DNA of 32,000 nucleotides from Geobacter metallireducens GS-15 (GTDB taxonomy: Bacteria; Desulfobacterota; Desulfuromonadia; Geobacterales; Geobacteraceae): positions 2,400,001 to 2,432,000 of the forward strand of contig NC_007517.1 of the NCBI RefSeq assembly GCF_000012925.1, in the 5' to 3' direction. Below the pieces are notes generated by a model that had not been told where the DNA came from, made no database searches, and was given only the letters and a program-made list of their open reading frames with translations. A program made the translations under genes and the position numbers. Positions 159 to 31,424 of this stretch are shown here, in pieces (the stretch's first letter is position 1; each line of letters opens with the position of its first letter).

Positions 159-187
159 TTGACATGACCTCCCCTTGCGGTTATCTT
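159..187 (+). promoter_or_regulatory. sigma-70-type promoter of the marR-like gene
   Basis: -35 TTGACA at 159-164, a 17-nt spacer, then -10 TATCTT at 182-187. It lies 23 nt upstream of the ATG at 210 and overlaps the 15-nt operator-like element at 182-196. Confidence 0.5.
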
Positions 188-196
188 GTATGCAAG
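182..196. promoter_or_regulatory. candidate MarR operator, copy 1 (TATCTTGTATGCAAG)
   Basis: Exact reverse complement of the 15-mer at 649-663. It overlaps the -10 hexamer of the marR-like promoter. Confidence 0.5.
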
Positions 197-209
197 AGGA
201 TTTATTGAG

Positions 210-623
210 ATGATTTCATATCGGGACCACATAGTATTCTTGATCGCCAAGGCCCATCAACGGGCCCAGGGAGCCCTTAAGGGACACCTTCTCCCCTTTG
301 GTCTCACCCCCATGCAGTGCCTTTTTCTGGAGGCCCTCATGGAGGAGGATGGGCTTTCGGTGGGAGAGATCGGCCGGCGCATAGCCCTGGATACCGCCAC
401 CCTTGCGGGAATTCTCGACCGCATGGTCACGGCCGGCTGGGTCAGGCGCGAGACCGACTCCCAGGACGCCCGGGTGGCGCGGGTCTATCTGACGGAGAAG
501 GCAGCGGCGGCCATTCCGGAGCTGTCAGCAAGCATTGAACGAACAAACGATGAGCTCATGCGGAACTTTTCCCTTGAGGAAAAACTTCTGATGAAACGGT
601 TCCTTCGGGATTTCCGGGAATAA
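210..623 (+). CDS. MarR family transcriptional regulator
   Basis: ORF 186..623. I prefer the ATG at 210, preceded by AGAGGA at 195-200, over the TTG at 186. The protein shows a MarR winged-HTH pattern (LTPMQCLFLEALMEEDGLSVGEIGRRIALDTATLAGILDRMVTAGWVRR ... DARVARVYLTEKA). Confidence 0.85.
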   Translation: MISYRDHIVFLIAKAHQRAQGALKGHLLPFGLTPMQCLFLEALMEEDGLSVGEIGRRIALDTATLAGILDRMVTAGWVRRETDSQDARVARVYLTEKAAAAIPELSASIERTNDELMRNFSLEEKLLMKRFLRDFRE

Positions 624-648
624 GAATGATTTTCTTTTAACCTAACAC

Positions 649-663
649 CTTGCATACAAGATA
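649..663. promoter_or_regulatory. candidate MarR operator, copy 2 (CTTGCATACAAGATA)
   Basis: Exact inverted copy of 182-196. It sits 44 nt upstream of the hydroxylase FAD-subunit start (707), in the 83-nt gap after marR. Confidence 0.5.
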
Positions 664-706
664 TCCGCATAGGGCAAGGACCATCATCAATGTGAGGAGA
701 TACACC

Positions 707-1576
707 ATGTACATGCCCGATTTTGAGTACCATACTCCGGAGACTCTGACCGAGGCCTGCGCGCTCCTGGACGAACTGGGAGAACAGGCCACGGTCCTGG
801 CCGGGGGAACCGATGTCCTCCACAAGATGAAGGTGGGTAAACTGGCGCCGGGGCATCTGGTATCGCTCAAAAACCTGGACGACCTTCGCACCATCAGCCA
901 CGAGCCGGGGCGCGGCATCGTCATGGGAGCCCTGACCAGCCACAATGCCATCTACACCTCGCGTCTGCTCCAGAAACGCTACCTGTCCCTCCCCATGGCG
1001 GCCCACACCATGGCCTCCAACCAGATCTGCAACATGGGAACCGTGGGCGGTAACATCGTCAACGGCGTCCCTTCCGCCGACCTCCCTCCGATCCTCATTG
1101 CCCTCAACGCCTCGATACGGCTGGTTTCCAGCAAAGGGGAGCGAACCATGCCCCTGGAAGACTTCTTCCATGGCTCGGCCGAGACGGTGATCGCTCCGGG
1201 CGAGTTGCTGGCCGACATCACCATCCCGGACCAGCCGACCACCGGGAGCACCTACATGAAATTCGGCCTGCGCCGCTCCGGTGCTCTAGCGGTTGTTGGG
1301 GTAGCGGTGTCGGTTACGGTGAAAGGTGACATCCTGGAAGACGTCCGGATCGTTCTCGCTTCGGCGGCGCCAACGGTAATGCGCGCTCGGAAGGCAGAGG
1401 ACCGGCTGAGGGGGAAAAAGATCAGCGACGAATTGCTGGCCGAAGCCGGGGAGGAGGCAGCGGCGGAAAGCCGTCCCCGGGACAGCATCCGGGGTTCCGC
1501 CGAATATCGCCGGAACTTGGTCGGAGTGCTCACCAAACGGGCGCTGCGCAAAGCAATCGACGAAGGCCACTCGTAA
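707..1576 (+). CDS. molybdenum hydroxylase (xanthine dehydrogenase/CO dehydrogenase family) FAD-binding medium subunit
   Basis: ORF 650..1576. The ATG at 707 lies 7 nt after GAGGAG (694-699). CoxM/XdhB-like features: F.YH.P.TL.EA..LL N-terminus, LAGGTDV, GTVGGNI. About 289 aa with only two Cys, so there is no extra Fe-S binding loop. Confidence 0.85.
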   Translation: MYMPDFEYHTPETLTEACALLDELGEQATVLAGGTDVLHKMKVGKLAPGHLVSLKNLDDLRTISHEPGRGIVMGALTSHNAIYTSRLLQKRYLSLPMAAHTMASNQICNMGTVGGNIVNGVPSADLPPILIALNASIRLVSSKGERTMPLEDFFHGSAETVIAPGELLADITIPDQPTTGSTYMKFGLRRSGALAVVGVAVSVTVKGDILEDVRIVLASAAPTVMRARKAEDRLRGKKISDELLAEAGEEAAAESRPRDSIRGSAEYRRNLVGVLTKRALRKAIDEGHS

Positions 1577-1588
1577 GGAGGTAAATAT

Positions 1589-2104
1589 ATGTTGCAGTCA
1601 ATAACCGACAAAGACGGAGTGAAGCGTTACCTGATCACCCTGAAGGTGAATGGGGATGCGAAGACCGTGCTGGTAAAGGGAAACGCCATCCTGACCAATG
1701 TGCTGCGCGACCACCTGGACCTGACCGGCACCAAGAAGGGGTGCGAGCTGGGGGACTGCGGTTCGTGCACCGTTCTGCTGGACGGCAAACCGGTGGATTC
1801 GTGCCTGATGCTGGCCGTTGAGGCAGACGGCCGGGAGATCACCACCATCGAAGGGGTTGCCGCCAACGGGGCACTGGACGCCATTCAGGAGTCCATGATC
1901 AACCACGCCGCCGTGCAGTGCGGCTACTGCACCCCTGGCATGGTCCTCTCCGCCAAGGCACTTCTGACCCGCAACCCGCATCCCACGGAACCGGAGGTTC
2001 GGGAGGCCATTGCCGGCAATCTCTGCCGCTGCACCGGCTACGTTCATATCGTCGAGGCCGTTCTGGCCGCATCCCAAGGGCGAACTGCGCCGGCCGAGCA
2101 TTAA
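1589..2104 (+). CDS. molybdenum hydroxylase [2Fe-2S]-binding small subunit
   Basis: Both cluster motifs are visible: CELGDCGSCTVLLDGKPVDSC (plant-type) and CGYCTPG...CRCTGY. AGGAGG lies upstream of the ATG. Confidence 0.9.
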   Translation: MLQSITDKDGVKRYLITLKVNGDAKTVLVKGNAILTNVLRDHLDLTGTKKGCELGDCGSCTVLLDGKPVDSCLMLAVEADGREITTIEGVAANGALDAIQESMINHAAVQCGYCTPGMVLSAKALLTRNPHPTEPEVREAIAGNLCRCTGYVHIVEAVLAASQGRTAPAEH

Positions 2105-2116
2105 GGAGAACAACAG

Positions 2117-4423
2117 ATGAGCGACAATCATAAAGTCATCGGCCGCAGCGTTCCCCGCATCGACGGGCCCGAGAAGGTAACCGGCGCGGCAAAGTATACC
2201 GGGGATCTCAAGTTCCCCAACATGCTCTACGGCAAGATCCTCACCAGCCCCCATGCCCACGCCAGGATCATCTCCATCGACACCTCCGAGGCGGAGAAGC
2301 TGCCGGGGGTGAAGGCGGTCATCACCCACAAGGATGTGCCGGAGCTGAAGTATGGCCTGAGCCCGGCCCGGTGGGACGAAAACATCTTCTGCATCGACAA
2401 GGTGCGCTTCGTCGGCGACAAGGTGGCGGCGGTCGCCTGCGTAGACGAGGATACCTGCTACCGGGCCATGAAGCTCATCAAGGTGGAATACGAAGAGCTC
2501 CCCGCAGTGCTCGATTTCCGTCACGCCATGGACGAGGGGCAGCCTCTGGTCCACGAGGAGTACGAGCGGAACATCAACACCGAGATTCACCAGGAGTTCG
2601 GCGACGTGGCAAAGGCCCTGGCAGAGGCCCACCATGTCCGTACCGACGTCTTCGTGGGCCAGCGGACCTATCAGGCCCCCATCGAGCCCCACTCCGCCAT
2701 CTCCATGTGGGAAGGGGAAAAACTCACCATCTATTCCAGCACCCAGTCCCCCCACTACTTCCAGTACTACATCGCCCGGGAGTTCGGCATGCCCATGGGG
2801 GACGTGCGGATCATCAAGCCATACCTGGGGGGAGGTTTCGGCGGCAAGCTGGAGCCCACGGGCCTGGAGTTTGCCGGAGCGGTGCTGGCGAAGCGGACCG
2901 GCCGGCCGGTGCGGACCTTCTACGACCGGGCCGAAATGTTTGCCCACAACCGGGGGCGCCACGCCCAGTACATGGAGATCACCACCGGGGTGGACAAGGA
3001 CGGCAAGATCCTGGCCGCCAAGGCCAACTTCATCATGGACGGCGGCGCCTACACGAGCCTCGGGATCGCCAGCGCCTACTACGCCGGCGCGCTCCTTCCC
3101 ATGACCTACGAATTCGACAACTACCAGTTCGACATGTTCCGGGTCTACACCAACCTCCCCGCCTGCGGCGCCCAGCGGGGCCACGGCGCTCCCCAGCCCA
3201 AGTACGCCTTCGAGAGCCATCTGGACAACGTGGCCGCCGACCTGGGGATCGACCCCATGGACATCCGGATCCGCAATGCCCGCCGTCCCGACACCGTCAC
3301 CCCCAATGACTTCCGGGTCAACTCCTGCATGATGCGGGAGTGCCTGGAACAGGTCCGGCAGATCTCGGACTGGGACGAGAAAAAGAAAAACCTCCCCCAC
3401 GGACGCGGCATCGGCGTCGCCACCGGCAGCTTCGTCACCGGCGCGGGGTACCCCATCTACCGCACCGACCTCCCCCACGCCGCCGCCTTCATCAAGGTGC
3501 ATGAGGACGGCACCGCAGCCACCCTCTACACCGGCTCTGTCGACATCGGCCAGGGATCTGATACCATTCTCTGTCAGATGGCGGCCGAGGCCATGGGGTA
3601 TCGCTACGAGCAGATGAAGATCGTGGCCGCCGACACGGAGATCACACCGCTCGATTTCGGCGCCTACGCCAGCCGCCAGACCTACATGTCAGGGGCGGCC
3701 GTCAAGCAGGCGGGGGAAGAGGTCAAGAAGCAGCTCCTCGACCTGGCGTCGACCATGCTTTCCCTCCCTGCCGACGACCTTGAGTGCGCGGAAGGGGTTA
3801 TTTTCTCCAAGTCGCGGGAAGGGAAGACACTGACGTTCGAGGAAGTGGCACGGAAACACTTCGTCCTCAAGGGCCCGCTCCTGGGACGCGGCGCCTACAC
3901 GCCGCCGAAACTTGGCGGAAGCTTCAAGGGGGCCGCGGTCGGCACGTCGCCCGCCTACAGCTTCGGCGCCCAGGTGGGAGAGGTTTCCATCGACGAGGAA
4001 ACGGGAGAAATCACCGTGGTGGGCATCTGGGACGTCCACGACTGCGGCAAGGTCATCAACCCGCGGCTGCTCCACGGCCAGGTCCACGGCGCCCTCTACA
4101 TGGGGATGGGGGAATCGGTCTGGGAAGAGGTGCTCTTCGACGACAAGGGACGGATCAAGAATGCGGAACTGGCCAATTACCGGCTCCTCACCGCCGTGGA
4201 CATGCCCCCCATCCAGTCGGAGGTGGTGAACAGCTACGAACCGACCGGGCCGTGGGGGGTGAAGGAAGTGGGCGAAGGGGCCACCAACCCTACCCTGGGG
4301 ATGTTCAGCAATGCCATCTTCGACGCCATGGGGGTCAGGGTGAACAGTCTGCCGCTCACCTACGAGAAGGTCTGGCGGGCACTGAAGGAAAAGCGGGAGC
4401 GGGAAGAGACCAAGGCGGCATAA
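2117..4423 (+). CDS. molybdenum hydroxylase molybdopterin-binding large subunit (aldehyde oxidase/xanthine dehydrogenase family)
   Basis: 768 aa. N-terminal GRSVPRIDGPEKVTGAAKYTGD (a/b hammerhead start). Also GAQRGHGAPQ, GSVDIGQGSDT and a C-terminal GVKEVGEGA (catalytic Glu region). AAGGAGA RBS. Confidence 0.9.
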   Translation: MSDNHKVIGRSVPRIDGPEKVTGAAKYTGDLKFPNMLYGKILTSPHAHARIISIDTSEAEKLPGVKAVITHKDVPELKYGLSPARWDENIFCIDKVRFVGDKVAAVACVDEDTCYRAMKLIKVEYEELPAVLDFRHAMDEGQPLVHEEYERNINTEIHQEFGDVAKALAEAHHVRTDVFVGQRTYQAPIEPHSAISMWEGEKLTIYSSTQSPHYFQYYIAREFGMPMGDVRIIKPYLGGGFGGKLEPTGLEFAGAVLAKRTGRPVRTFYDRAEMFAHNRGRHAQYMEITTGVDKDGKILAAKANFIMDGGAYTSLGIASAYYAGALLPMTYEFDNYQFDMFRVYTNLPACGAQRGHGAPQPKYAFESHLDNVAADLGIDPMDIRIRNARRPDTVTPNDFRVNSCMMRECLEQVRQISDWDEKKKNLPHGRGIGVATGSFVTGAGYPIYRTDLPHAAAFIKVHEDGTAATLYTGSVDIGQGSDTILCQMAAEAMGYRYEQMKIVAADTEITPLDFGAYASRQTYMSGAAVKQAGEEVKKQLLDLASTMLSLPADDLECAEGVIFSKSREGKTLTFEEVARKHFVLKGPLLGRGAYTPPKLGGSFKGAAVGTSPAYSFGAQVGEVSIDEETGEITVVGIWDVHDCGKVINPRLLHGQVHGALYMGMGESVWEEVLFDDKGRIKNAELANYRLLTAVDMPPIQSEVVNSYEPTGPWGVKEVGEGATNPTLGMFSNAIFDAMGVRVNSLPLTYEKVWRALKEKREREETKAA

Positions 4424-4444
4424 AAACGGCAGCAGGAGTCAGCC

Positions 4445-5206
4445 ATGTGGGACTGGATCGGAAAACTCGATGAACTGCGACGCAGCAACCAGCTGGCGGT
4501 GCTGGTGACGGTGACGAAGAGCAGCGGCTCCACGCCGCGCAAGCACGGGGCAAAGATGATCGTCCTTCCCGACGGGACCTTCTACGGCACCGTGGGGGGC
4601 GGGACTCCCGAGTACTACGCGCTGGAAGATGCCCGCGCCTGCTTCGAGACCATGCAGAGCACCACGAGCAGCGTCCCCCTCAAGCAGCGGGGAGAGTTCC
4701 CCGCCTGCGGCGGCACCATGGAGTTCTATATGGAAGTGATCAACGACAACCCGGTCCTCCACCTCTTCGGCGCCGGGCATATCGGCCAGTCCCTCTGCCA
4801 GATCCTCGACGGAACCCCCTTCCGCATCCATCTCATCGACGAGCGGGAGGAGTGGATTAACGCCCCCAACCTGCCGGGAAGCGTCATCCGCCACCAGCGC
4901 CACTACAGCGACTTCATCGAAAAAGCCATCTGGTGCGACAAGCGGACCTTCGTCGCCATCCAGACCTTCAGCGGCACCCTGGATCAGCAGGTTCTGGAAG
5001 AGGTGCTGCCGAACCCCACCCGCTACGTGGGGATGATCGGCAGCAAAGCCAAGTGGGCAAAGGTCCGGAGCAACCTGGAGGAAAAGGGGCTGGACCTCTC
5101 CGCGGTCCGGTGCCCCATCGGTCACGACAACGGCGGCAACTCGCCCCGGGAAATCGCCATCAGCATCGCCAGCCAGCTTCTTTCCACCTACTACGGGCGG
5201 GAGTGA
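4445..5206 (+). CDS. xdhC: XdhC/CoxI family molybdenum-cofactor insertion accessory protein
   Basis: N-terminal XdhC_CoxI pattern (LAVLVTVTKSSGSTPRKHGAKMIV..DG...GTVGGG). Rossmann-like C-domain (LHLFGAGHIGQSL). Positioned directly after the large subunit. Confidence 0.85.
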   Translation: MWDWIGKLDELRRSNQLAVLVTVTKSSGSTPRKHGAKMIVLPDGTFYGTVGGGTPEYYALEDARACFETMQSTTSSVPLKQRGEFPACGGTMEFYMEVINDNPVLHLFGAGHIGQSLCQILDGTPFRIHLIDEREEWINAPNLPGSVIRHQRHYSDFIEKAIWCDKRTFVAIQTFSGTLDQQVLEEVLPNPTRYVGMIGSKAKWAKVRSNLEEKGLDLSAVRCPIGHDNGGNSPREIAISIASQLLSTYYGRE

Positions 5207-5212
5207 ACCACC

Positions 5213-6019
5213 ATGAAACGGTTGACGGAACGCGTCATCATCATGAAGGGAGCGGGAGAAATGGCTACCGGTGTGGCTTGCCGGCTCCATCGGTCAGGGT
5301 TCCGGCGTATCCTCATGCTGGAAGCCCCTTCCCCTCTCGCGGTCAGACGGGGGGTTTCCTTCTGCGAAGCCATCCATAACGGCAGGAAATCGGTGGAGGG
5401 GATAGAGGCAGTCAGGATCGAAAACGGATCCGCCCTGGCCGATGCCTGGGGAAAGGGGGAAATTCCCCTGCTGGCCGACCCGCAAGGGGATGCCGTGCGC
5501 CGCATGGAACCCGACATCCTCATCGATGCAACGATAGCCAAGCGGAATCTCGGCATTGCCATCACCGACGCGCCGCTCGTGATCGCCCTGGGTCCCGGCT
5601 TCTTTGCCGGCAGGGACTGCCATCTGGTGATTGAAACCAACCGGGGCCACAATCTGGGGCGGCTTATCGCCTGTGGCGAGGCGGAGCCCAACACCGGCAT
5701 CCCCGGCAACATCGGCGGTTATACCAGGGAGCGGGTTCTCCGCGCGCCGGCCGACGGCCACTTCACGACCGAAAAGGTGATCGGCGACCAGGTCAGCAAG
5801 GGGGATGTGGTCGGCATCGTCGGCACCAACACGGTTACGGCTTCCATCGACGGCATCCTGCGGGGGCTGATACGGCCCGGCACCCATGTCACGACCGGCC
5901 TCAAGATCGGCGATATCGATCCCCGTGGGGATACGGCCTATTGCCATACCATTTCGGAGAAGGCCCGCGCCCTTGGCGGGTCGGTGCTGGAAGCGATACT
6001 TACCGTCTACAACCAGTGA
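5213..6019 (+). CDS. yqeB: selenium-dependent molybdenum hydroxylase system protein, YqeB/EF2563 family
   Basis: About 268 aa. The N-terminal IIMKGAGEMATGVACRLHRSGFR..LMLE....AVRR.VSF.EA...G...VEG matches my memory of the EF2563/YqeB C-terminal family. It is followed directly by yqeC. Family assignment is by eye only. Confidence 0.7.
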   Translation: MKRLTERVIIMKGAGEMATGVACRLHRSGFRRILMLEAPSPLAVRRGVSFCEAIHNGRKSVEGIEAVRIENGSALADAWGKGEIPLLADPQGDAVRRMEPDILIDATIAKRNLGIAITDAPLVIALGPGFFAGRDCHLVIETNRGHNLGRLIACGEAEPNTGIPGNIGGYTRERVLRAPADGHFTTEKVIGDQVSKGDVVGIVGTNTVTASIDGILRGLIRPGTHVTTGLKIGDIDPRGDTAYCHTISEKARALGGSVLEAILTVYNQ

Positions 6020-6029
6020 GCCATGGACC

Positions 6030-6812
6030 ATGGAAAATTTCGCCGAAATAGTGGGTATCGGACCTGCGGGAGTGATAAGCATCACCGGCGGAGGCGGCAA
6101 AACGAGCCTCATGTTCCACCTTGCCAGACAACTGGCCTACTCCGGCAAAAGGGTTCTGACAACGACCACCACCAAGATCCTCGCCCCTTCGGTCGAGGAG
6201 TCAAGGACGCTCCTCATCTCCCAGGACCCGCAGGTCATCCTCCGCCATGCCAAAGCCCATCCCGGCCCCGGCGTGCATGTTTCGGCGGCAGCCGGCCATA
6301 TCCCCCATACCGAAAAACTGCAGGGATTTCCCCGTGAAGCGATCCGCACCTTCGAGGATTCGGGAGAGTTCGACTGGGTCGTCGTGGAAGCCGACGGCGC
6401 GGCCCGGAAGCCGCTGAAGGCACCGGCAGCCCATGAGCCGGTCATCCCCGGCAACAGCACCATTGTCGTCGCCCTGGCCGGGCTTGAGGTGCTTGGCAGG
6501 CCCCTGGGGGAGGAGATGGTCTTCCGGTCGGAACTGGCGGGGGAACTGATGCAGATCCCCCAGGGCGAAACCATAACCGTGCCGGCCCTGGCGCGCCTTC
6601 TGGCGCACCCTTCAGGGGGCTTCAAAGGGGCTCCGCCCCAAGCGCGCCGCTTCATCTTCCTCAACAAGGCGGATACGCCCGAACTGCAGGAAAAGGGAGG
6701 GGAAGTCGCGCTCCAGCTCAAGGAGATCGCGCCTTCCGTTGCCGAAGCGGTCATCGTGGGGCAACTGCGGCAGGAGATCACCCTGCACCGGGTCTATCCG
6801 AGGGGAGAGTAA
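6030..6812 (+). CDS. yqeC: selenium cofactor biosynthesis accessory protein YqeC
   Basis: ORF 5886..6812, whose 5' part overlaps yqeB. The ATG at 6030 gives MENFAEIVGIGPAGVISITGGGGKTSLMFHLA, the P-loop-like GGGGKT start typical of YqeC. A later VVVEADGA motif is also present. Confidence 0.75.
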   Translation: MENFAEIVGIGPAGVISITGGGGKTSLMFHLARQLAYSGKRVLTTTTTKILAPSVEESRTLLISQDPQVILRHAKAHPGPGVHVSAAAGHIPHTEKLQGFPREAIRTFEDSGEFDWVVVEADGAARKPLKAPAAHEPVIPGNSTIVVALAGLEVLGRPLGEEMVFRSELAGELMQIPQGETITVPALARLLAHPSGGFKGAPPQARRFIFLNKADTPELQEKGGEVALQLKEIAPSVAEAVIVGQLRQEITLHRVYPRGE

Positions 6813-7420
6813 TGGAGGCCCGTCCCAGGGTTGCCGGGATTGTCCTCGCCGCCGGCAAGAGCACCCGCATGGGGCGGCCAAAGCAGCTCCTCCCCTTCCG
6901 GGGCCGGACCGTTCTGGAATGTGTCGTCGACAATGCCCTTGCCTCACGCCTCCACCGCGTTGTCGTGGTGCTCGGCCACGAGGCGGAGGCCGTCATGCCG
7001 CTTCTTGGGCACCGGTGCGTCACAACCGTCGTAAACCCCTTGTACGGTGAGGGTCAGAGCTCGTCGCTGAAGGCGGGCCTGGGGGCGATGACCGAAGAGA
7101 CCGATGCCGCCCTCTTTCTCCTGGGCGACCAACCCCTCGTCACCGCCGACACCATCAACCTTCTCATCGCCGCCTTCGCCGACTTCCCCTCCCCCATCGT
7201 CATCCCCACCTTTGAAGGCCACAGGGGAAATCCGGTCCTCTTCAGCCGGGAGACCTTCCCCCGCATCGAGGCGTTGAGCGGAGATCGCGGCGCCAGGGGG
7301 CTCTTCCGGGAGTATGGCGATGATATCCGCAGCATCGACGTGCGAACCCCGGCTATCCTCTTCGATCTGGATACGGAGGAGGATTACCTCCGCCTGTTGC
7401 GGGAATTCCCCGCGGTGTAA
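6812..7420 (+). CDS. mocA: MobA/MocA-like molybdenum cofactor nucleotidyltransferase (probable cytidylyltransferase)
   Basis: AGIVLAAGKSTRMGRPKQLLPF, followed by LLGDQPLV, is typical of MocA/YgfJ. The ATG overlaps the yqeC TAA by 1 nt (TAATG). Confidence 0.85.
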   Translation: MEARPRVAGIVLAAGKSTRMGRPKQLLPFRGRTVLECVVDNALASRLHRVVVVLGHEAEAVMPLLGHRCVTTVVNPLYGEGQSSSLKAGLGAMTEETDAALFLLGDQPLVTADTINLLIAAFADFPSPIVIPTFEGHRGNPVLFSRETFPRIEALSGDRGARGLFREYGDDIRSIDVRTPAILFDLDTEEDYLRLLREFPAV

Positions 7421-7475: not shown

Positions 7476-8540
7476 TCAGTCACGACAAAAACCAGCACCG
7501 CCATTGACAGCTCGCACCCCCCTGACACTGCGGTAGCGGTTGATCCCTTCTCCATCGAGCCTCGCCTCCAGCCTGCCGCGGCACGCCAGATAGCGCACGT
7601 GGGAAAGGCATTCCCCCAGCGCCAGCTGCAGATCAAAGTCCCCCAATGAGAAGGAGTAGAGCACCTTCACCAGCTCATAAGCGGACAGTTCACTGCCGGC
7701 ACAGGCATCCACTATCACCTGGGACCGGCGCCGGTGATGACCCCGTAACTCCGCGACCCTTTTCCTCGCCCCGCGGAAGGGGAGCCCGTGCCCCGGGAGC
7801 ACAAGGACGTCGTCGGGGATTGTCGCGAGACGGTCGAGAGATGCAAGCCAATGGCTGAGGGGGTCGTCCTCCGGATTCATGACGCTGACCGAGACGTTGG
7901 TGGAGATGCTCGGCAGGAGTTGGTCCCCGGAGATGAGAATTTTACGCACCTTCGAAAGCAGCAGTGCATGCTCGGGGGAATGTCCCCGGCCGACAATGAC
8001 CTGCCACTCCTCGTCCAGCGGCAGGTGGCTGCGATCCTGCAAACGGACGAAGGAGAGAGGCATGGGGGATATCTCGCGGGCAAAGTCGAACATCACCAGC
8101 GTCTGGGGCAACAGTTCCTGCGGGAAGCCTGCCCGTTGGAAAAATTCGACATGCTGCCACGGCACCTCTTGGGGAAGGTCCGGCCACCCCAGCAGGGTGT
8201 AATACTCCTCGTAGGTCATGAAGAGGGGAACCCGCCAGCGCTCCGTCAGGTAGCCGGCCAGCCCCAGGTGATCCACGTGGTAATGGGTGCAGTACACCCC
8301 CACCACCTTTTCACCGGCAAGGGGCCCGGAAAATACCTCCTCCCATATTCTCCGCGCCTCGGGCGAATCGAGCCCCGTGTCCACAATGAGCCACCCTCCC
8401 GCAACCCGCACCAGGTAGATATTCACGTGGTCAGGGGCGTAGGTCACCGGCATGCGCAGCCATCTGACATCAGGGCCAATCTCCACCAGCTCGCCATCCG
8501 AGTGGGGAGGAGAATACGGAAAGGTCATGGATAGCATCAT
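7476..8540 (-). CDS. MBL-fold metallo-hydrolase with C-terminal helical/winged-helix-like extension
   Basis: HxHxDH motif (THYHVDHLG). Downstream H (GRGHSPEH) and D/H (LISGD, LPGHG) ligands. Its start overlaps the upstream gene stop in an ATGA junction at 8537-8540. Confidence 0.8.
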   Translation of the reverse strand: MMLSMTFPYSPPHSDGELVEIGPDVRWLRMPVTYAPDHVNIYLVRVAGGWLIVDTGLDSPEARRIWEEVFSGPLAGEKVVGVYCTHYHVDHLGLAGYLTERWRVPLFMTYEEYYTLLGWPDLPQEVPWQHVEFFQRAGFPQELLPQTLVMFDFAREISPMPLSFVRLQDRSHLPLDEEWQVIVGRGHSPEHALLLSKVRKILISGDQLLPSISTNVSVSVMNPEDDPLSHWLASLDRLATIPDDVLVLPGHGLPFRGARKRVAELRGHHRRRSQVIVDACAGSELSAYELVKVLYSFSLGDFDLQLALGECLSHVRYLACRGRLEARLDGEGINRYRSVRGVRAVNGGAGFCRD

Positions 8541-10390
8541 TTGAATCGGTACTCCATTCGGTAGGTATCGGTCTCGTCGGAATAGGTCAGAGAATGCCCC
8601 AACCGCCGGTGATAGGCAAGCATCGCCTCGTTGGTCGGCAGGATCTCCGCATAGAAGCCGTCGATCCCCTGGCCGGCGGCGTGGCGCTCCAACTGGCGGA
8701 GGAGGTGATGAGCCAGGCCCAGGCGGCGATACTCCTCATGGACCACCACCGCCGTTTCAGCCATATTGGTGAGGGGGTCGACGGCATAGCGCGCCACCGC
8801 CACGATGGACTCGGCATCATCCTCCTGCCGGAACACCGCCAGCGCCATGCGACTGCTGTAGTCCACGCAGACCTGTTTCGCCGCCTCACGATGGGCCAGT
8901 TGCAGTTTCGGCCCGAAATAGCGATTGTAAATGGTCTCGGGATTATGGCTGTAGAAGAACTCCTGGAGCAAACGCTCATCGGTGGCCTTGAGGGGTCGGA
9001 CCAGCATCATGGTCCCGCCGAACGCCCTTCTCTCTTCAAAATCCTTCGGGTAGCGATTGAGCGCCTGCTGCCATACCTGCTCATCTTCATAGACGTAATG
9101 CTTCTGCTTGACGAACTCCAGCAACTCCCGCCGGTAATCGGGGTGGGCAATGGAGATCAGGGCCAGGGCCCGCTCGCGGATGGTTTTCCCGTGGAGATAG
9201 GCGATACCGTACTCGGACACCACGTAGTGGGCGTCGCCGCGACTGGTGACAACGCCGGCGCCGTCGTCGATCCGGTGGACGATGCGGCTGATCCCCCCGC
9301 CTTTTGCGGTGCTGCGGATGGCGATGATCGGTTTACCTCCCCGGCTCATGGCCGCACCGCGGGCGAAATCCACCTGGCCGCCGATGCCGCTGTAGAAGGT
9401 ATAGCCGATGCTGTCGGCGCAGATCTGCCCGGTCAGGTCCACCTGCAGGGCCGAATTGATGGCCACCACCCGGTCGTTGGCGCAGATCACCCGGGGATCG
9501 TTGACGAAATCCGAGGGATGGAATTCAACCCCCACGTTGCCGTCAACGAAATCGTAAAGCGCGCGGGTGCCGATGACAAAGCTGGTGACCGTCTTGCCGG
9601 GATGAACGCTCTTCAGGCGGTTGGTAATGTTTCCCTCCTCGATAAGGGGGATCAGGGCGTCGCTGAACATCTCGGTGTGGATGCCGAGATCCCGCTTGTC
9701 GGCGATGAACCGGAGGACCGTGCTGGGAATGGTGCCGATCCCCATCTGGAGGCAGCTGCCGTTTTCCACCAGCCGCGAGATGTGGTAGCCGATCTGCAGC
9801 TCCACCTCATCCGGTTCCTTGGCAGCGGATTCAAGGATCGGGTAGTCCGTTTCCACCAGGCAATCGAAGCGGCTCAGGTGAATGTGGGTGTCGCCGCAGG
9901 TGCGCGGCATGCGGGGGTTCACCTCGGCAATCACCAGCCGGGCCCGGTCCAGCGCCGCCCGCTGGATATCCACATTGACCCCGAGGCTGCAGTAACCGTG
10001 GCTGTCAGGGGGGGACACCTGCAACAGCGCCGCATGATTCCCCCTCCGGCCGCGGCGGATCAGGGCCGGGATCTCGCTCAGGAAGATCGGCGTGTAGTCC
10101 GCCCGCCCGTCGCAGACCGCCTGGCGGATATCCTCGCTGATGAAGAACGAGTTGTGGCGAAGATGACCGGTATTCCGCTCGGTAATGTAATCGGCAGAAC
10201 CGAAGGCGAGTAGCTGGATCAGCTCGATGTCATGGAGCCTGCCGGCGTTTCGGTTCAGGGCGGCCACCAGCTGCAACGGCGCGGCGCAGCCCGACCCGAC
10301 AAACACGCGCCAACCGGATTGAATCCGTGCCACCGCCTCATCAGCCGTTGTCAGCTTCTGTCTGTACAGCTCAACAAGTTGGTTGTTCAT
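8537..10390 (-). CDS. acetyl-CoA hydrolase/transferase family domain fused to a C-terminal GNAT N-acetyltransferase domain
   Basis: 617 aa. The first ~430 aa resemble 4-hydroxybutyrate CoA-transferase/acetyl-CoA hydrolase (GSGCAAP, GIHTEMFSD, FYSGIGGQVDF). The last ~160 aa have the GNAT acetyl-CoA-binding pattern (VVVHEEYRRLGLAHHLLRQLERHAAGQGI). Confidence 0.8.
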   Translation of the reverse strand: MNNQLVELYRQKLTTADEAVARIQSGWRVFVGSGCAAPLQLVAALNRNAGRLHDIELIQLLAFGSADYITERNTGHLRHNSFFISEDIRQAVCDGRADYTPIFLSEIPALIRRGRRGNHAALLQVSPPDSHGYCSLGVNVDIQRAALDRARLVIAEVNPRMPRTCGDTHIHLSRFDCLVETDYPILESAAKEPDEVELQIGYHISRLVENGSCLQMGIGTIPSTVLRFIADKRDLGIHTEMFSDALIPLIEEGNITNRLKSVHPGKTVTSFVIGTRALYDFVDGNVGVEFHPSDFVNDPRVICANDRVVAINSALQVDLTGQICADSIGYTFYSGIGGQVDFARGAAMSRGGKPIIAIRSTAKGGGISRIVHRIDDGAGVVTSRGDAHYVVSEYGIAYLHGKTIRERALALISIAHPDYRRELLEFVKQKHYVYEDEQVWQQALNRYPKDFEERRAFGGTMMLVRPLKATDERLLQEFFYSHNPETIYNRYFGPKLQLAHREAAKQVCVDYSSRMALAVFRQEDDAESIVAVARYAVDPLTNMAETAVVVHEEYRRLGLAHHLLRQLERHAAGQGIDGFYAEILPTNEAMLAYHRRLGHSLTYSDETDTYRMEYRFK

Positions 10391-12290: not shown

Positions 12291-12348
12291 ATCAGGGGCC
12301 TGATCGTCACGAACACACTCGATGCACTACCTGCCAAGGAGGTACGGG

Positions 12349-13635
12349 ATGGAGAAATACGCAGTCAGAAGAATGTTCAAGGGTCAACTGGCAACAGGTT
12401 TCGCCGCTCTGGCACTGAGTTTCATCGTCGCGGCTTTTCTGTGGCCTGCCTGGTCCCTCACGGTAAAGGCGCTGTACGGAATCCTCGCAGGCCCCGGCCT
12501 CAGCGCCGCGGAACCCAAGGAAGCCGGCCAGCTGATCGGTGCCGTGGCCAGGGGAACCTTCTTCTGGACGGCCATCAACAGCTGGATCTGGCTGACTCTG
12601 GTTATGGGGAATTACGGCAAGACCTCCTTGACCGAAAAACAGCCCTGGGCCGGCATCTACTATACCATCGTGGGGTGGCTGGTGGGGGCGGGAGCCTTTC
12701 TGGCGCTCATCAGCTTCATGGGGATCTGGTGGAAACCGTTCAGCCTGGCGATCATGTTCGTCCCCCGGACCGCCGCCGATGTAGCCATGGCCTTTGAGGC
12801 CTGGGAAGCATCCAACTTCTATGCCCTGGCGGTGATTATCGCCCAGATCCCGCTGGTTTCCCTGCTGCAGAAATGGCCCTTTGCCGGAAAGGCCGAAAAG
12901 CCCGTCGAGAGCTTCGGCGTGATTGCCATGGGGATCGCGGTGACCTTCATCGTCTGGATGGCGATGATCGTTCCGAGCTGGATGAAGCTTTCCCTGGGCG
13001 GAGAGCAGATCGTCGCCCCACCCTTCGGCAACTGGCCGGCATTCGCCGCATTCTGCCAGGCGTACGTTATCTTTGCCATCATGCCGGTGGAAGGGGGAGA
13101 GCTTTACCCCATGAAGCTGTTCACCCGGAAGCAGCCGCTGATGGGGATTATCGGCTTTGCCATCGCGCTTGCCGCCGGCTTTGTCATGCCGCCGATCATA
13201 AAGGGGATCATCGCCCCCCTCAATCTGGTAAGCGGCCCGCCCCTGGATGCGGTGGCGGCATCCCTGGAGCTGTCGGTGATCGTCTTCATGCTGGCCTGGC
13301 ACCACCTGTTCGAGGATTACCCGAGCGCCGCGCTGGTTCCCAATACCGCCGCCAGGGTATGCTGCAGGATAGCGATATGGTCCATCGGCGGCACGGTCTA
13401 TGGGGTCATCTGGCTGAAAACCTTCAAGCTGATCCCCTACGGCGCCAACGACCTCGGCATGGGCGTTCCGCCGCTGGGGATCCTGGCGGGGCAGTTCGCC
13501 CTGCTGATGACCCTCCTCTTCCTGAACACCTTTTTCGATAAATGGCCCCTGGTGCGCAAAGTGCCCCTGAGCGTACCCGAGGACATCCCCCTCCCCGCTG
13601 ACGAGCAGGCAGGGTTTGAAGCCATGGCCAAGTAG
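12349..13635 (+). CDS. polytopic integral membrane protein of unrecognised family (about 10-11 predicted TM helices)
   Basis: ORF 12322..13635. The ATG at 12349 lies 7 nt after AAGGAGG. The protein is Trp/Phe/Gly-rich with long hydrophobic stretches. It starts 58 nt after the ligase stop and is followed by an intrinsic terminator. Confidence 0.75.
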   Translation: MEKYAVRRMFKGQLATGFAALALSFIVAAFLWPAWSLTVKALYGILAGPGLSAAEPKEAGQLIGAVARGTFFWTAINSWIWLTLVMGNYGKTSLTEKQPWAGIYYTIVGWLVGAGAFLALISFMGIWWKPFSLAIMFVPRTAADVAMAFEAWEASNFYALAVIIAQIPLVSLLQKWPFAGKAEKPVESFGVIAMGIAVTFIVWMAMIVPSWMKLSLGGEQIVAPPFGNWPAFAAFCQAYVIFAIMPVEGGELYPMKLFTRKQPLMGIIGFAIALAAGFVMPPIIKGIIAPLNLVSGPPLDAVAASLELSVIVFMLAWHHLFEDYPSAALVPNTAARVCCRIAIWSIGGTVYGVIWLKTFKLIPYGANDLGMGVPPLGILAGQFALLMTLLFLNTFFDKWPLVRKVPLSVPEDIPLPADEQAGFEAMAK

Positions 13636-13658
13636 AAGAATGCATTGCTGTGTCATGG

Positions 13659-13712: not shown

Positions 13713-15053
13713 CTACGAATCTTCCAGACCATACTCCTTGATGCGGCGGTCGAGGGTCGGCCGGGAAATGCCGAGGATTTCCGCCGCCCTCTTCTTCTCG
13801 TTGTGGGTAAAGGCAAGGACATTCTGGATATGTTCCCGCTCGACCTCATGGAGCGGCCTGAGCACCAGGGGAAAGCTGTCGCTCTCGCTTTCCTCTTCCA
13901 GGTGCAGGGATTCGGGCGACAGCACCGAGCCGTGCGAAAGGAGGACGGCGCGCCGCAGCGTGTTCTCCAGCTCCCGGACGTTGCCCGCCCACGGATGGGC
14001 CAGGATGGCATTCATGGTCTCCTGGGGGATGATATCCACCCGCTTCCCGGTCTCATGGTGAAGCTTTTCCAGCAGGAATTTCACCAGGATGGGAATGTCG
14101 TCCCTGCGTTCCCTGAGGGGAGGGAGATCGATGGAGACCACTTTCAGGCGGTAGTACAGGTCGTGGCGGAAAATGCCGCTGTTGACCAGCGTGAGGAGAT
14201 TCTTGTTGGTGGCGGCCACAATGCGCACATCGGCCTTGATGGTCTCGATTCCCCCTACCCGCTCGAACTCCCGCTCCTGGATAAAGCGGAGCAGTTTCAC
14301 CTGCAACTCGGGACTGATCTCCGATATCTCATCAAGGAACAGGGTCCCCCCCTGGGCCAGCTCGAACTTCCCCGGTTTGGTTCGATACGCCCCGGTGAAC
14401 GCCCCCTTCTCATGGCCGAACAGCTCGCTTTCGAGGACCGTCGGCGAGAGGGCGGAGCAGGCCACGGCGATGAACGGACGGTTGCGGAACTTGCTGTTGA
14501 AATGGATGGCACGGGCAACCATTTCCTTGCCGGTGCCGCTCTCCCCCTGGATCAGGACCGTGGCCCGGAAGTCGGCAATGGCGCCGATGGTTTTGTAAAC
14601 CTCCTTCATGGCCCGGGAGCGGCCCACCATGATGTTCTGCTCAAAGGGGGCATCGATAGAGTCGCGGAAGGCGACGCCGGTCCGGGAAAGGGCACTCATC
14701 TCGAATATCTTGTCGATAATCTGGTCGAGCTGATCGAGATCGAGGGGCTTGCCCAGGTGGTCGATGGCCCCGAGGCGGATTGCCTCGATGGCGGTCTGCA
14801 TGTCGTCGTAGGCGGTGATCATGATAACCGGCAGGGCCGGCTTTCTTTCCTTGATCAGGGTCAGCACCTCGAAACCGTCCATGCCGGTCAGCCGCAGATC
14901 GAGGAGCACCAGGCCCACGTCCCGCGCCAGGGCCAGGTCGACCGCTTCGTTGCCGGTGGCAGCGGTGAGAACCGTATACCCCGTCTCGGCAAGGTGCAGC
15001 TCCAGGGTCCGACGGATGGCTCTGTCGTCATCGGCGACCAGGATTGTTCTCAT
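13713..15053 (-). CDS. bamW: sigma-54-dependent Fis family response regulator (NtrC type)
   Basis: REC domain (ILVADDD ... LLDLRLTGMDG). AAA+ domain with Walker A GESGTGKE, GAFTGA loop and Walker B LFLDEI. C-terminal Fis HTH (AAEILGISRPTLDRRIKEYGL). The symbol is from remembered synteny. Confidence 0.9.
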   Translation of the reverse strand: MRTILVADDDRAIRRTLELHLAETGYTVLTAATGNEAVDLALARDVGLVLLDLRLTGMDGFEVLTLIKERKPALPVIMITAYDDMQTAIEAIRLGAIDHLGKPLDLDQLDQIIDKIFEMSALSRTGVAFRDSIDAPFEQNIMVGRSRAMKEVYKTIGAIADFRATVLIQGESGTGKEMVARAIHFNSKFRNRPFIAVACSALSPTVLESELFGHEKGAFTGAYRTKPGKFELAQGGTLFLDEISEISPELQVKLLRFIQEREFERVGGIETIKADVRIVAATNKNLLTLVNSGIFRHDLYYRLKVVSIDLPPLRERRDDIPILVKFLLEKLHHETGKRVDIIPQETMNAILAHPWAGNVRELENTLRRAVLLSHGSVLSPESLHLEEESESDSFPLVLRPLHEVEREHIQNVLAFTHNEKKRAAEILGISRPTLDRRIKEYGLEDS

Positions 15054-16861
15054 TGCAGGCCATCCCCTTTCTCGGCGGGTCCCCCGAGGGGCAGAGTCAC
15101 GGTGAACGTGGCGCCCCGGCCGGGTTCGCTCTCGACGGATACCGATCCGCCATGGCGAAGGACAATCGTTTGCAGGATAGAGAGCCCCAAGCCGCCTCCG
15201 GACGCCTTGGTGGTGAAAAACGGCTCGAAGAGCTGTTCGAGCTTGTCGGGCGGAATCCCCCCCCCGGTATCGCTGACCCTGAGCAGCGCCATCCCGCTCA
15301 TACTCTGGGCGGTTATGGTGAGCAGCCGGGCATCGGGCGGCGTCCGGTTCATGGCATCGAGGGCATTGAGGACCAGGTTCAGCAGCACCTGATGAATCTG
15401 CTCGGGGTCGCAGACGAGGTTCAGGGGCGAATCGATACGGACTTCGGACCGAACCTGCTCTTCCTCCAGGCGCTGCGCCATGAGCTGCATCAGGCGGTCG
15501 ACAATCCCCTCCAGTTCCGCCGTCTCAAGGCGCAGGGGCCGCGAGCGGGCGAAATCCAGGACATCGTTCAGCAGGCGGTTGAGGCGCTGGATTTCCTCCT
15601 CCACGATGGAAAAGTTCTCCCTGAGCGTGCCAGCCGGAGCGATTTTTTTCCGGATCATCTGCATGTTCATCTGGATGGCCGAGAGGGGGTTGCGGATCTC
15701 ATGGGCCAGCCCCAGGGCCAGGTGCCCCACCGCGGCCACCTTCTTCGCCACCAGCAGCTCGTCGAAGGTGGATTCGAGCCGGGAATGGGCTTCACTGAGG
15801 GCTTTGGTGTGATGGTTGACCTGGCTGGAGAGGATCCGGTTCCAATTCATGAGAACCCCCATCAACAGGGTTGCCCCCGCCAGGACCGTCACCAGCAGAG
15901 TGGTGGCGAAGGCCTCCTGTCGATGCATGAACGTGGACAGGAGTTCGTCCACCTCCCGCTCGGGGGTTGAAATCCCCATTGCCCAGAGGCGGTTCTCGAT
16001 GCGGAACGGGTAGTAGCTCCCCAGCTTCCGCACCGGCTGATCGGGGATCTCGGCATCCAGGTAGTCGTACCAGCCGCTCCCCGGCTTCCCCTCTTCCACA
16101 GAGATGAGAAGGTTATAGAGGCGCGGCCACCGGGGAAGAAACGCCGCGTCGAAGCCGCGCCCCACAAGCCTGCCGCTCGGGGCGACGAGCATGGTCCTGC
16201 TGCTGATGTCGGCAAGCCAGGCGCGGCCATGGGTGCCGACGCGTATGGGAAGGATGTGCTTGTTCGCCAGCTTCTCGAAATCGAGGACACAACTGGCCAC
16301 CCCGAGGAACTCCCCCCGGGGTCCGTAGATCCCCTCGGCCACGATCAGGGCCTTGTACCCCCGGCGCTTTCCCCCCTCCATGCGGGTGAAGGGGGACAGG
16401 TACATCTCCCCGGGCTTCCCCTTTTCCTTGGCCCATTTTATATAGTCCCGCCAGGCATAGTTACGGCCAACGGTGTACGGATCGGCCGGCTCTATGGCGA
16501 CGGCGGTTCCACGGCTGTCAAAGATCACGAGGTCGACAACCGGGGTCGAGGCGAGGGAACCGTAGATCTTTTTCAGACGTTCGCCGACTTCCTCGGCCCT
16601 CCGGCGGGTGACCTCCTTCCCTTCGAAGAGCGTCACCACCAGATCGAGGTTGCGATGGAACGTGGCAAACATCTCCTCCAGGGTGTGGGAGGCCAGTTCG
16701 GCCATGAGGGACTGCTGCCGGTTGTACTGCTCGAAGAAGCGCTCCCGCGCCTCGGCGCGAACGGCGTTGGTGGTGTGCCTGATCCAGAGGAGAGCGCCGA
16801 CGGCCGTGGCGACCACCAGGACCAGAACGAGCAGCAGCTTGAGTTTGCGAAGATGAATCAT
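15050..16861 (-). CDS. bamV: sensor histidine kinase with periplasmic Cache-like sensor domain
   Basis: Two TM segments flank a ~280-aa extracytoplasmic domain. H-box HEIRNPLSAI, N-box LNLVLNALDAM, G1 DTGGGI, G2 GGLGLSI. Its stop overlaps the regulator start (ATGA at 15050-15053). Confidence 0.9.
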   Translation of the reverse strand: MIHLRKLKLLLVLVLVVATAVGALLWIRHTTNAVRAEARERFFEQYNRQQSLMAELASHTLEEMFATFHRNLDLVVTLFEGKEVTRRRAEEVGERLKKIYGSLASTPVVDLVIFDSRGTAVAIEPADPYTVGRNYAWRDYIKWAKEKGKPGEMYLSPFTRMEGGKRRGYKALIVAEGIYGPRGEFLGVASCVLDFEKLANKHILPIRVGTHGRAWLADISSRTMLVAPSGRLVGRGFDAAFLPRWPRLYNLLISVEEGKPGSGWYDYLDAEIPDQPVRKLGSYYPFRIENRLWAMGISTPEREVDELLSTFMHRQEAFATTLLVTVLAGATLLMGVLMNWNRILSSQVNHHTKALSEAHSRLESTFDELLVAKKVAAVGHLALGLAHEIRNPLSAIQMNMQMIRKKIAPAGTLRENFSIVEEEIQRLNRLLNDVLDFARSRPLRLETAELEGIVDRLMQLMAQRLEEEQVRSEVRIDSPLNLVCDPEQIHQVLLNLVLNALDAMNRTPPDARLLTITAQSMSGMALLRVSDTGGGIPPDKLEQLFEPFFTTKASGGGLGLSILQTIVLRHGGSVSVESEPGRGATFTVTLPLGGPAEKGDGLQ

Positions 16862-19211: not shown

Positions 19212-19307
19212 GTTTCCTCCACAAAAAGAGATGATCTGCAAACCTTCACTTTCCCGTTGCACTCCCATGACACATGCGACTTCTGCGCTTGCTCCCTGCT
19301 CCCCCTT

Positions 19308-20207: not shown

Positions 20208-20330
20208 TCGATGCTCCTTTCTCGATGACAGCTGTTTGCAGCAATTCATAATCCGCCAACTTAAAACCCTGTTCTATTGTTTTTAAAAGATACTAATAAA
20301 CCCATTCACTGTGCTCAGTGGATGGGGATA

Positions 20331-26313: not shown

Positions 26314-26365
26314 GATGAAATCTCCTTTCCCTGGAATTTCCGTTGTTTTCGCGAACACCGTCGAG

Positions 26366-26396
26366 GTAACGAAAACCCGCCCCGAAGGGCGGGTTT
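26366..26396 (-). terminator. rho-independent terminator between the two multicopper oxidase genes
   Basis: On the - strand: AAACCCGCCC-UUCG-GGGCGGGUUU (perfect 10-bp stem with a UUCG tetraloop) running into UUUUCGUU. It lies 34 nt after the stop at 26431. Confidence 0.65.
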
Positions 26397-26430
26397 CGTG
26401 CATCGCGACACAGTACTTGTTCGTCTTGCT

Positions 26431-28557: not shown

Positions 28558-28695
28558 GGTTGACTCCTTTTTCGCTGACAGTATGTGCCGCACTTCCATA
28601 AAATCCCCGTCCCTGGGGAGCCGGCAATTTTCTGCCGGTGCCGTCATGGCATTGATCATGGACGGTCTCATCTCGTATTCCGTTGCCGGGGCACC

Positions 28696-31400: not shown

Positions 31401-31424
31401 CGCCAGACCTTTCCCATGAACCCA

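Follow-up and report, generated by a model that had tools for sequence, protein, structure and literature searches.

Why should an operon for an enzyme of anaerobic aromatic degradation carry genes that elsewhere mark selenium-dependent molybdenum hydroxylases? The question is raised by eight co-directional genes on the forward strand of a stretch of the Geobacter metallireducens GS-15 chromosome (NC_007517.1, positions 2,400,001 to 2,432,000; the whole 32,000 nucleotides are referred to here as the window). They encode a MarR-family regulator, the flavin adenine dinucleotide (FAD; beta), 2x[2Fe-2S] (gamma) and molybdopterin (alpha) subunits of an enzyme belonging to the xanthine-oxidase family, and the maturation proteins XdhC, YqeB, YqeC and MocA. 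An earlier note, made from the DNA letters, had described them as a MarR-controlled, selenium-type hydroxylase operon of unknown substrate. The locus is the known pcm 4-hydroxybenzoyl-CoA reductase (here 4-HBCR) operon, Gmet_2133-2140, with its accessory genes. Taken as a whole, we regard it as probably the form of the 4-HBCR operon found in obligate anaerobes, with a dedicated maturation module that may install selenium, and regulated by MarR. The literature supplies the identity of the organism, the names of the genes and the fact that selD is present; the gene identities, the absence of an iron-sulphur loop, the clade structure, the co-localisation statistics and the conserved operator-like motif come from the analysis described here.

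Two published descriptions of one locus

Zhang, Turanov, Hatfield and Gladyshev (2008; PMC2432076) list for G. metallireducens, in their first table, HP1 at 2405213-2406019, HP2 at 2406030-2406812, COG2068 at 2406812-2407420, XdhC at 2404445-2405206 and a Mo-binding subunit at 2402117-2404423. All five positions are those of the window plus exactly 2,400,000. The same work places selD at 3290478-3291509, outside the window, and lists this exact cluster together with selD as a locus of the "third selenium utilisation trait". The statement in the earlier note that the role of selenium in this organism is unknown was overstated, as both the locus and selD had been tabulated in 2008. In published genome analyses Gmet_2134-2136 are the 4-HBCR genes of G. 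metallireducens, and the enzyme has been published as PcmRST; pcmV (Gmet_2138), pcmW (Gmet_2139) and pcmX (Gmet_2140) were described as possible cofactor-biosynthesis proteins for 4-HBCR by Aklujkar et al. (2009). Gene number and order from Gmet_2134-2136 through Gmet_2143 (BamY) match the window, and the sequence of UniProt entries from Q39TQ9 to Q39TQ0 in Marozava et al. (2020) agrees with it as well.

The locus, the enzyme assignment and the selenium-trait markers have all been published previously, in two literatures that do not cite one another on this point. In the literature that we searched there was no paper with both 'selenium-dependent molybdenum' and 'benzoyl-CoA'. What is new is the joining of the two annotations, the statistics at the level of the clade, the operator motif and a picture of two classes, one with the iron-sulphur loop and without yqeB or yqeC, the other loop-less and frequently with them.

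The alpha subunit and the assignment of the enzyme

The alpha subunit scores 1318.6 bits on the HcrA equivalog model TIGR03194 (cut-off 994.55), twice the score of the next-best family. Its best match in the PDB is HcrA of Thauera (1RM6_A) with 570 bits, the next structure reaching 302, and its 120 closest database relatives, which share 74-91% identity with it, are nearly all called 4-HBCR alpha subunits where they are named. On the selenium-dependent xanthine dehydrogenase model TIGR03311 it reaches 377 bits (cut-off 830.45) and on nicotinate dehydrogenase 238 bits. Growth substrates of G. metallireducens include 4-hydroxybenzoate, p-cresol and phenol, and each of them is routed through 4-hydroxybenzoyl-CoA. 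In other phyla, relatives adjoin UbiD/UbiX phenol-carboxylation genes and aryl-CoA ligases (seen in Desulfoscipio gibsoniae, in Thermincola and, in one count, at eight loci). When Desulfatiglans anilini was grown on phenol, 'CO dehydrogenase medium and small subunits' encoded beside a 4-HBCR alpha gene were strongly induced; 'CO dehydrogenase medium subunit' is the automatic annotation to be expected for a beta subunit of the kind found here.

It is very likely, mainly from this context, the physiology and the published work on the organism, that Gmet_2134-2136 encode 4-HBCR. The unknown substrate of the earlier note is accordingly replaced by 4-hydroxybenzoyl-CoA, and its argument that the missing loop counts against such a reductase is not supported, given the score of the alpha subunit on TIGR03194. 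In a neighbour-joining tree of 173 alpha subunits (100 bootstraps) the Geobacter-type and the Thauera-type sequences each form a monophyletic clade with 100/100 support. The Geobacter-type enzyme is a separate and highly conserved clade of obligate anaerobes, and is not the sister of Thauera HcrA.

A FAD subunit without the [4Fe-4S] loop

The beta subunit contains cysteines at residues 18 and 108 only, out of 289. Aligned to four Thauera-type beta subunits (324-327 residues), it shows a clean 38-column gap and has none of the four loop cysteines, just as the earlier note had said of a FAD subunit of about this length with two cysteines and no cysteine-rich insertion. At the gap the Thauera-type subunits carry QDTRCVFYNQS.WWR..N.YCLK..G..CHV..K.DRCYAT, with four cysteines. 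The best match in the PDB is CutM, at 179 bits over the full length, with HcrB at 64 bits, and because CutM is the best solved relative, homologues of this subunit are annotated as 'CO dehydrogenase medium subunit'. While CutM partners a CoxL-type subunit with a [CuSMoO2] centre, as CoxM does, the alpha subunit here is HcrA-like.

The comparison was extended to 79 Geobacter-type loci, taking one genome per species, and to 84 Thauera-type loci, 4 found by exact look-up and 80 from metagenomes. A loop-less beta subunit (gap of 36-38 residues, no loop cysteine) is present in 61 of the 67 Geobacter-type loci that could be assessed, and the loop-bearing beta subunits of the remaining six come from another three-subunit enzyme, distinct from the first, that the locus also encodes. 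All four loop cysteines are kept in 73/74 Thauera-type beta subunits. The two types also differ in gene order, which is beta-gamma-alpha here and gamma-alpha-beta in the Thauera type. As judged from these alignments, the FAD subunit of the Geobacter clade is in every case CutM-like and without the loop. The loop is dispensable for reductive dehydroxylation in this enzyme family, because the Enterocloster dehydroxylase UcdCFO, which is stimulated by NADH, also lacks it.

The second three-subunit enzyme, also from the xanthine-oxidase family, lies within a few kb of the loop-less one at some loci of obligate anaerobes (Table 1). Its FAD subunit has the four-cysteine loop and is 37-39% identical to Thauera-type HcrB, and its alpha subunits score 629-912 on TIGR03194, under the cut-off. 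At the D. gibsoniae locus (L164, 18496-22183) there is a tandem loop-less paralogue, consisting of a beta subunit of 295 residues, a gamma subunit and an alpha subunit of 770 residues that is 41% identical to the alpha subunit of the window. It lies behind a PadR gene and downstream of a YqeC-MocA-YqeB-XdhC-MoCF block, and another isomer of hydroxybenzoyl-CoA may be the substrate that it reduces.

The maturation genes and selenium

Run against curated hidden Markov models, as the earlier note had suggested for two of them, YqeB (397.3 bits on TIGR03309, cut-off 220), YqeC (190.3 on TIGR03172, cut-off 73.05; 139.8 on PF19842) and MocA (229 on TIGR03310, cut-off 186.45; PF12804 also present) all pass. 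XdhC falls just below the cut-off of TIGR02964 (146.4 against 161.6), though both of its Pfam XdhC domains pass and it matches PDB entry 2we7 at 1.5e-18. The proposed xdhC-yqeB-yqeC-mocA set is therefore present, three members by curated cut-offs and XdhC by its Pfam domains. The presence of a MocA cytidylyltransferase in the operon implies that the cofactor is probably molybdopterin cytosine dinucleotide (MCD), in keeping with the cytidine dinucleotide form that had been proposed.

The trait of selenium-dependent molybdenum hydroxylases (Haft & Self, 2008; Zhang et al, 2008) is marked by selD and by YqeB, YqeC and YgfJ/MocA clustered with a molybdenum hydroxylase. Here all three proteins are encoded in one operon with the molybdenum subunit. 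YqeB (TIGR03309) has been reported from selD-positive genomes only, its homologues carry the database name 'selenium-dependent molybdenum cofactor biosynthesis protein YqeB', and in Clostridioides difficile deletion of yqeB phenocopies deletion of selD on xanthine and urate. By analogy, selenium dependence of the Geobacter-type 4-HBCR is plausible and would be specific to this clade; we consider the chances evenly poised.

Neither YqeB nor YqeC has a meaningful sequence match in the PDB, YqeC being weakly ParA/ArsA-like. An AlphaFold model of YqeB (pLDDT, the predicted local confidence score, 73.6) has a Rossmann-like N-terminal domain, and its C-terminal 70 or so residues superpose on the barrels of biotin carboxyl carrier proteins (BCCP) with a TM-score of about 0.8 on the target, which agrees with a remark in the C. 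difficile yqeB paper. The most conserved segment, residues 108-169 in the middle of the protein, holds the majority of the invariant residues, among them D, K, N, H, E, T, N, R, G and H, and is modelled below a pLDDT of 50. In this predicted structure the C-terminal barrel alone is informative, and it gives no mechanism.

Co-localisation of enzyme and maturation genes

Within 10 kb of the enzyme, in the flanks that were fetched, yqeB or yqeC is present at 42/79 Geobacter-type loci and at 0/84 Thauera-type loci. Counting only loci whose flanks each reach 6 kb or more gives 25/43 against 0/34 (Fisher p = 7.5e-9, a value that overstates the independence of the loci because they are phylogenetically clustered). 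The full eight-gene order, from MarR to XdhC-YqeB-YqeC-MocA, is conserved across the Geobacteraceae, while in several Geobacter relatives XdhC and YqeB are retained and YqeC and MocA are missing in cis. In Bacillota an IclR-YqeC-MocA-YqeB-XdhC-MoCF block lies downstream of the same enzyme, and in Actinomycetota YqeC and MocA lie upstream of it with no YqeB nearby. Thauera-type operons have at most a long XdhC and MocA. Since the same enzyme is accompanied by these genes in different arrangements across phyla, a functional link between the enzyme and the maturation genes would seem likely; that selenium is the basis of this link is drawn from outside evidence, namely the co-occurrence with selD and the C. 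difficile deletions.

In several Bacillota (L164, 5236-8234; L043; L070) a MoxR AAA+ ATPase and a von Willebrand factor A (VWA) protein are encoded immediately upstream of the enzyme. This is the CoxD/CoxE pairing known from the maturation of the CO-dehydrogenase active site.

The regulator and an operator-like motif

The first gene product matches Pfam MarR_2 (PF12802, 52.6 bits) and MarR (PF01047, 42.9 bits). The 15-mer TATCTTGTATGCAAG, whose core is a pseudo-palindrome of the half-sites CTTGTA and TGCAAG, stands in the window twice with no mismatch, where 0.01 copies are expected, once at the predicted promoter of marR and once, inverted, ahead of the gene for the FAD subunit. Every relative with this MarR (16/16, Geobacteraceae loci) has the form CTTGyAyrCAAG at the first position, the second or both, and in most of them the second site lies 39-73 nucleotides upstream of the gene for the FAD subunit. 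The description of the operon as MarR-controlled is reasonable, because this is the usual layout for an autoregulated MarR repressor, and the conserved palindrome at two sites gives it some backing; on balance we lean towards the two putative sites being MarR operators. The regulator itself is specific to the lineage: the corresponding gene in Bacillota encodes an IclR protein, and the MarR genes beside Thauera-type operons are not close homologues. A signal for sigma-54 control was sought and rejected, as the 9 matches to the promoter in the window are at expectation (8.8) and none lies upstream of the operon. Scans of the window with Rfam, including the molybdenum cofactor riboswitch, and for tRNAs found nothing.

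Organisation of the operon and its neighbours

All eight genes lie at the positions given by the earlier note (Table 1), the peptide motifs it quoted are found in the translations, and its statement that gaps do not exceed 25 nucleotides holds: from the FAD gene onwards the spacings are 12, 12, 21, 6 and 10 nucleotides, followed by a 1-nucleotide overlap. With spacings of 6-21 nucleotides and an overlap the genes look like one transcription unit.

Table 1. Coordinates of the operon, its predicted control sites and the second enzyme at related loci (window positions unless a locus is named).
Feature	Position	Strand	Remarks
Sigma-70-like promoter of marR	159..187	+	predicted; TTGACA 159-164, 17-nt spacer, TATCTT 182-187; 10/12 match to consensus
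Operator-like site 1, TATCTTGTATGCAAG	182..196	+	putative; overlaps -10 hexamer, just upstream of marR ribosome-binding site and start
Operator-like site 2, inverted TATCTTGTATGCAAG 15-mer	649..663	-	putative; 44 nt upstream of FAD-subunit ATG
MarR-family regulator	186-623	+	Gmet_2133 by position; likely start ATG 210 after AAGAGGA
FAD subunit (beta)	707-1576	+	Gmet_2134; 289 aa; mechanical open reading frame begins at 650; PF00941 and PF03450
2x[2Fe-2S] subunit (gamma)	1589-2104	+	Gmet_2135; PF01799 and PF00111
Molybdopterin subunit (alpha)	2117-4423	+	Gmet_2136; 768 aa, ~83 kDa; HcrA-type 4-hydroxybenzoyl-CoA reductase alpha
XdhC-family cofactor chaperone, short form	4445-5206	+	Gmet_2137 by position; 253 aa; PF02625 and PF13478
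YqeB / EF2563-type protein	5213-6019	+	pcmV, Gmet_2138; TIGR03309; HP1 in Zhang et al (2008)
YqeC P-loop protein	6030-6812	+	pcmW, Gmet_2139; TIGR03172, PF19842; HP2 in Zhang et al (2008)
MocA/YgfJ molybdenum cofactor cytidylyltransferase	6812-7420	+	pcmX, Gmet_2140; TIGR03310, PF12804; COG2068 in Zhang et al (2008)
Second enzyme, locus L010	6994-10960		
Second enzyme, locus L017	6500-10235	-	
Second enzyme, locus L022	7065-8517		
Second enzyme, locus L024	15029-18983		

The cluster does sit beside benzoyl-CoA pathway genes, as had been noted: the window also holds a benzoate-CoA ligase (bamY; 656 bits on TIGR02262), the dienoyl-CoA hydratase gene dch (508 bits on TIGR03189), the hydroxyacyl-CoA dehydrogenase gene had (592 bits on TIGR03201) and genes for an electron transfer flavoprotein. 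Convergent with the operon, at 7476-10390 on the reverse strand, are genes for a metallo-beta-lactamase (MBL)-fold hydrolase and for a CoA-transferase of the butyryl-CoA:acetate type that carries a GNAT acetyltransferase domain fused at its C terminus. Next to the benzoate-CoA ligase gene are those for a histidine kinase and a sigma-54-dependent response regulator (13713-16861, reverse strand), which we take to be the BamVW system. In a proteomic study the MBL-fold hydrolase is listed under p-hydroxybenzoate degradation, and the sigma-54 response regulator is among the most abundant proteins of that category (Marozava et al, 2020).

Three open reading frames on the reverse strand (12307-13656, 17868-19268 and 19308-20249; 449, 466 and 313 residues) have no match in Pfam or NCBIfam. 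They occupy the spaces that separate the ligase gene, the two-component genes and dch and had, and a relative of the 449-residue product (49-50% identity) is encoded beside a sigma-54 regulator at two of the related loci (L006 and L008). Further along, at 24766-30456 on the reverse strand, two multicopper oxidases (545 and 746 residues) followed by an MtrC/MtrF-like multihaem cytochrome (586 residues) are encoded beside the aromatic-degradation genes. The last part of the window (30001-32000) has a G+C content of 0.525, against about 0.60-0.63, over genes for AraC-type and LuxR-type response regulators.

Comparison with known systems

The characterised 4-HBCRs, HcrCAB of Thauera aromatica (PDB 1RM6/1SB3) and HbaBCD of Rhodopseudomonas palustris, consist of Mo-MCD, FAD and 2x[2Fe-2S] subunits, as is predicted here. 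The Thauera type also passes TIGR03194, also occurs in a benzoyl-CoA pathway context and has XdhC encoded next to it, in some cases along with MocA and a MarR-type gene. It differs from the enzyme here in sequence, with 39% identity in alpha, 24-27% in beta and about 47% (46-47%) in gamma, and XdhC here is the short form. No yqeB or yqeC accompanies any of the 84 Thauera-type loci. With the selenium-dependent molybdenum hydroxylases (nicotinate dehydrogenase of Eubacterium barkeri, 3HRD; clostridial xanthine dehydrogenase and purine hydroxylase; the yqeB-dependent system of C. difficile) the operon has in common the xanthine-oxidase family, a strictly anaerobic host, the YqeB, YqeC and MocA markers and a genomic selD. 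The known members of that group oxidatively hydroxylate N-heterocycles, whereas the enzyme here, if correctly identified, would reductively dehydroxylate a phenolic thioester.

A third point of comparison, made by description, is the urolithin C dehydroxylase of Enterocloster (UcdCFO or Ucdh). Like the enzyme proposed here it is a reductive phenol dehydroxylase of the xanthine-oxidase family from a strict anaerobe, with a FAD subunit that lacks the [4Fe-4S] loop, with MCD, the cofactor predicted here, and with maturation by XdhC and MocA. It acts on a free lactone and not on a CoA thioester, its identity to 4-HBCR is about 33% (published figure), and the papers describing it make no mention of selenium or yqeB.

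Proposed mechanism

We propose that the enzyme is a xanthine-oxidase-family protein that would operate in reverse. Two electrons would pass from the FAD of the beta subunit through the two [2Fe-2S] clusters of gamma to the Mo-MCD of alpha, where 4-hydroxybenzoyl-CoA would lose its para-hydroxyl group to give benzoyl-CoA for the adjoining Bam pathway. The Bam benzoyl-CoA reductase complex itself requires selenocysteine. In contrast to the Thauera enzyme there would be no [4Fe-4S] relay, and because the beta subunit is of the CutM/XdhB type the electron donor, possibly NAD(P)H or ferredoxin, would have to act directly at the flavin. MocA would make the cytidine dinucleotide form of the cofactor and XdhC would hold and insert it. 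YqeB, perhaps together with the P-loop protein YqeC, would most likely put a labile selenium ligand on the molybdenum in place of the usual terminal sulfido ligand, with selenium supplied by SelD, encoded elsewhere in the genome. MarR would probably act at the two copies of TATCTTGTATGCAAG to repress the enzyme genes as well as its own promoter, and an aromatic acid or its CoA thioester would release it.

By extension there may be two classes of 4-HBCR, mirroring the class I and class II benzoyl-CoA reductases: a Thauera class in facultative anaerobes, with sulfido-Mo and the extra [4Fe-4S] cluster, and a Geobacter class in obligate anaerobes, with no [4Fe-4S] cluster and with selenido-Mo made through YqeB and YqeC. 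We offer this division tentatively, at a little under even likelihood.

Alternative explanations

A number of results weigh against the picture given above, some of them on the identity of the enzyme and some on selenium. The enzyme could be a selenium-dependent hydroxylase or dehydroxylase for another aromatic or heteroaromatic acid or thioester, which is what the earlier note had proposed. Its alpha subunit is 39.4% identical to that of Thauera. Both clades fall within a superclade of 39 leaves (69/100), but as exclusive sisters they are recovered in 0/100 replicates, the Geobacter-type clade pairing with the uncharacterised representatives P0241-P0243 (85/100). The lineages between the two score 629-960 on TIGR03194, under the cut-off, while the Thauera type scores 1341.9; because both clades score at about 1320-1340, like members of the seed alignment, and the intermediates fail, passing this model is probably partly circular and we have downgraded it as a proof of orthology. 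As a proxy for a shared substrate, residues were sought that are invariant in both alpha clades and rare outside them, and none of the 18 candidate positions is exclusive, all being found in other members of the superclade. The beta subunit, of a different lineage and without the loop, fails the HcrB equivalog model (108.8 on TIGR03195, cut-off 404.55), the gamma subunit fails that for HcrC (184.7 on TIGR03193, cut-off 257.8), and the gene order is not that of the Thauera type. The superclade, moreover, is clearly one of several specificities, as seen from the tandem paralogues of D. gibsoniae and the loop-bearing second homologue at some loci. The earlier note had looked for two signs of a 4-HBCR, an alpha subunit among the characterised ones and an Fe-S loop in an alignment; the alpha subunit does group with HcrA, but no loop is revealed. 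In spite of these points a different substrate seems to us quite improbable, given that published analyses name these very genes as the 4-HBCR of the organism, that alpha passes the HcrA model, that members of the clade adjoin phenol-carboxylation and aryl-CoA ligase genes in unrelated phyla and that in D. anilini phenol induces the homologues.

If the enzyme is 4-HBCR, it could still carry an ordinary sulfido ligand, YqeB and YqeC being general factors of the lineage for handling or inserting MCD. Deletion of yqeC in C. difficile has no phenotype, 37/79 Geobacter-type loci (Desulfosporosinus, for example) have neither gene within 10 kb, and the partial sets of the Geobacter relatives and of the Actinomycetota, the former without YqeC and MocA in cis and the latter without YqeB nearby, would also fit such a general role. 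So would the proteins themselves, YqeC as a generic P-loop protein and YqeB as a Rossmann-like and BCCP-like model with no recognisable selenium-binding feature. This explanation we find rather unlikely, since it leaves aside the restriction of YqeB to selD-positive genomes and the shared phenotype of the yqeB and selD deletions, and since Thauera-type operons manage on XdhC with or without MocA. It is also conceivable that the maturation genes are adjacent by chance and serve another molybdenum hydroxylase encoded elsewhere in the genome, as yqeB and yqeC of C. difficile and Escherichia coli are not always found beside their presumed clients. The tight spacing and overlap of one transcription unit, the eight-gene order conserved in Geobacteraceae and the reordered YqeC-MocA-YqeB-XdhC block after the same enzyme in Bacillota, that is, in two phyla, make this very improbable.

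Significance

Of the biological routes of selenium, the least understood is that to the labile ligand of molybdenum hydroxylases, both in how the ligand is made and in the reason that some enzymes use it. To our knowledge studies of purine breakdown in C. difficile are so far the sole source of genetic evidence on this cofactor. Should the Geobacter-type 4-HBCR depend on selenium, the trait would extend from oxidative hydroxylases of N-heterocycles to a reductive dehydroxylase of anaerobic aromatic degradation, and among selenium-dependent molybdenum enzymes this one would be the first to dehydroxylate a non-heterocyclic substrate reductively. The selenium ligand might then explain how the enzyme does without the [4Fe-4S] relay. 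The operon would also offer a genetically tractable system for the synthesis of the labile selenium cofactor, with growth on benzoate as a built-in control, and deletion of yqeB would give a clean genetic test on 4-hydroxybenzoate versus benzoate.

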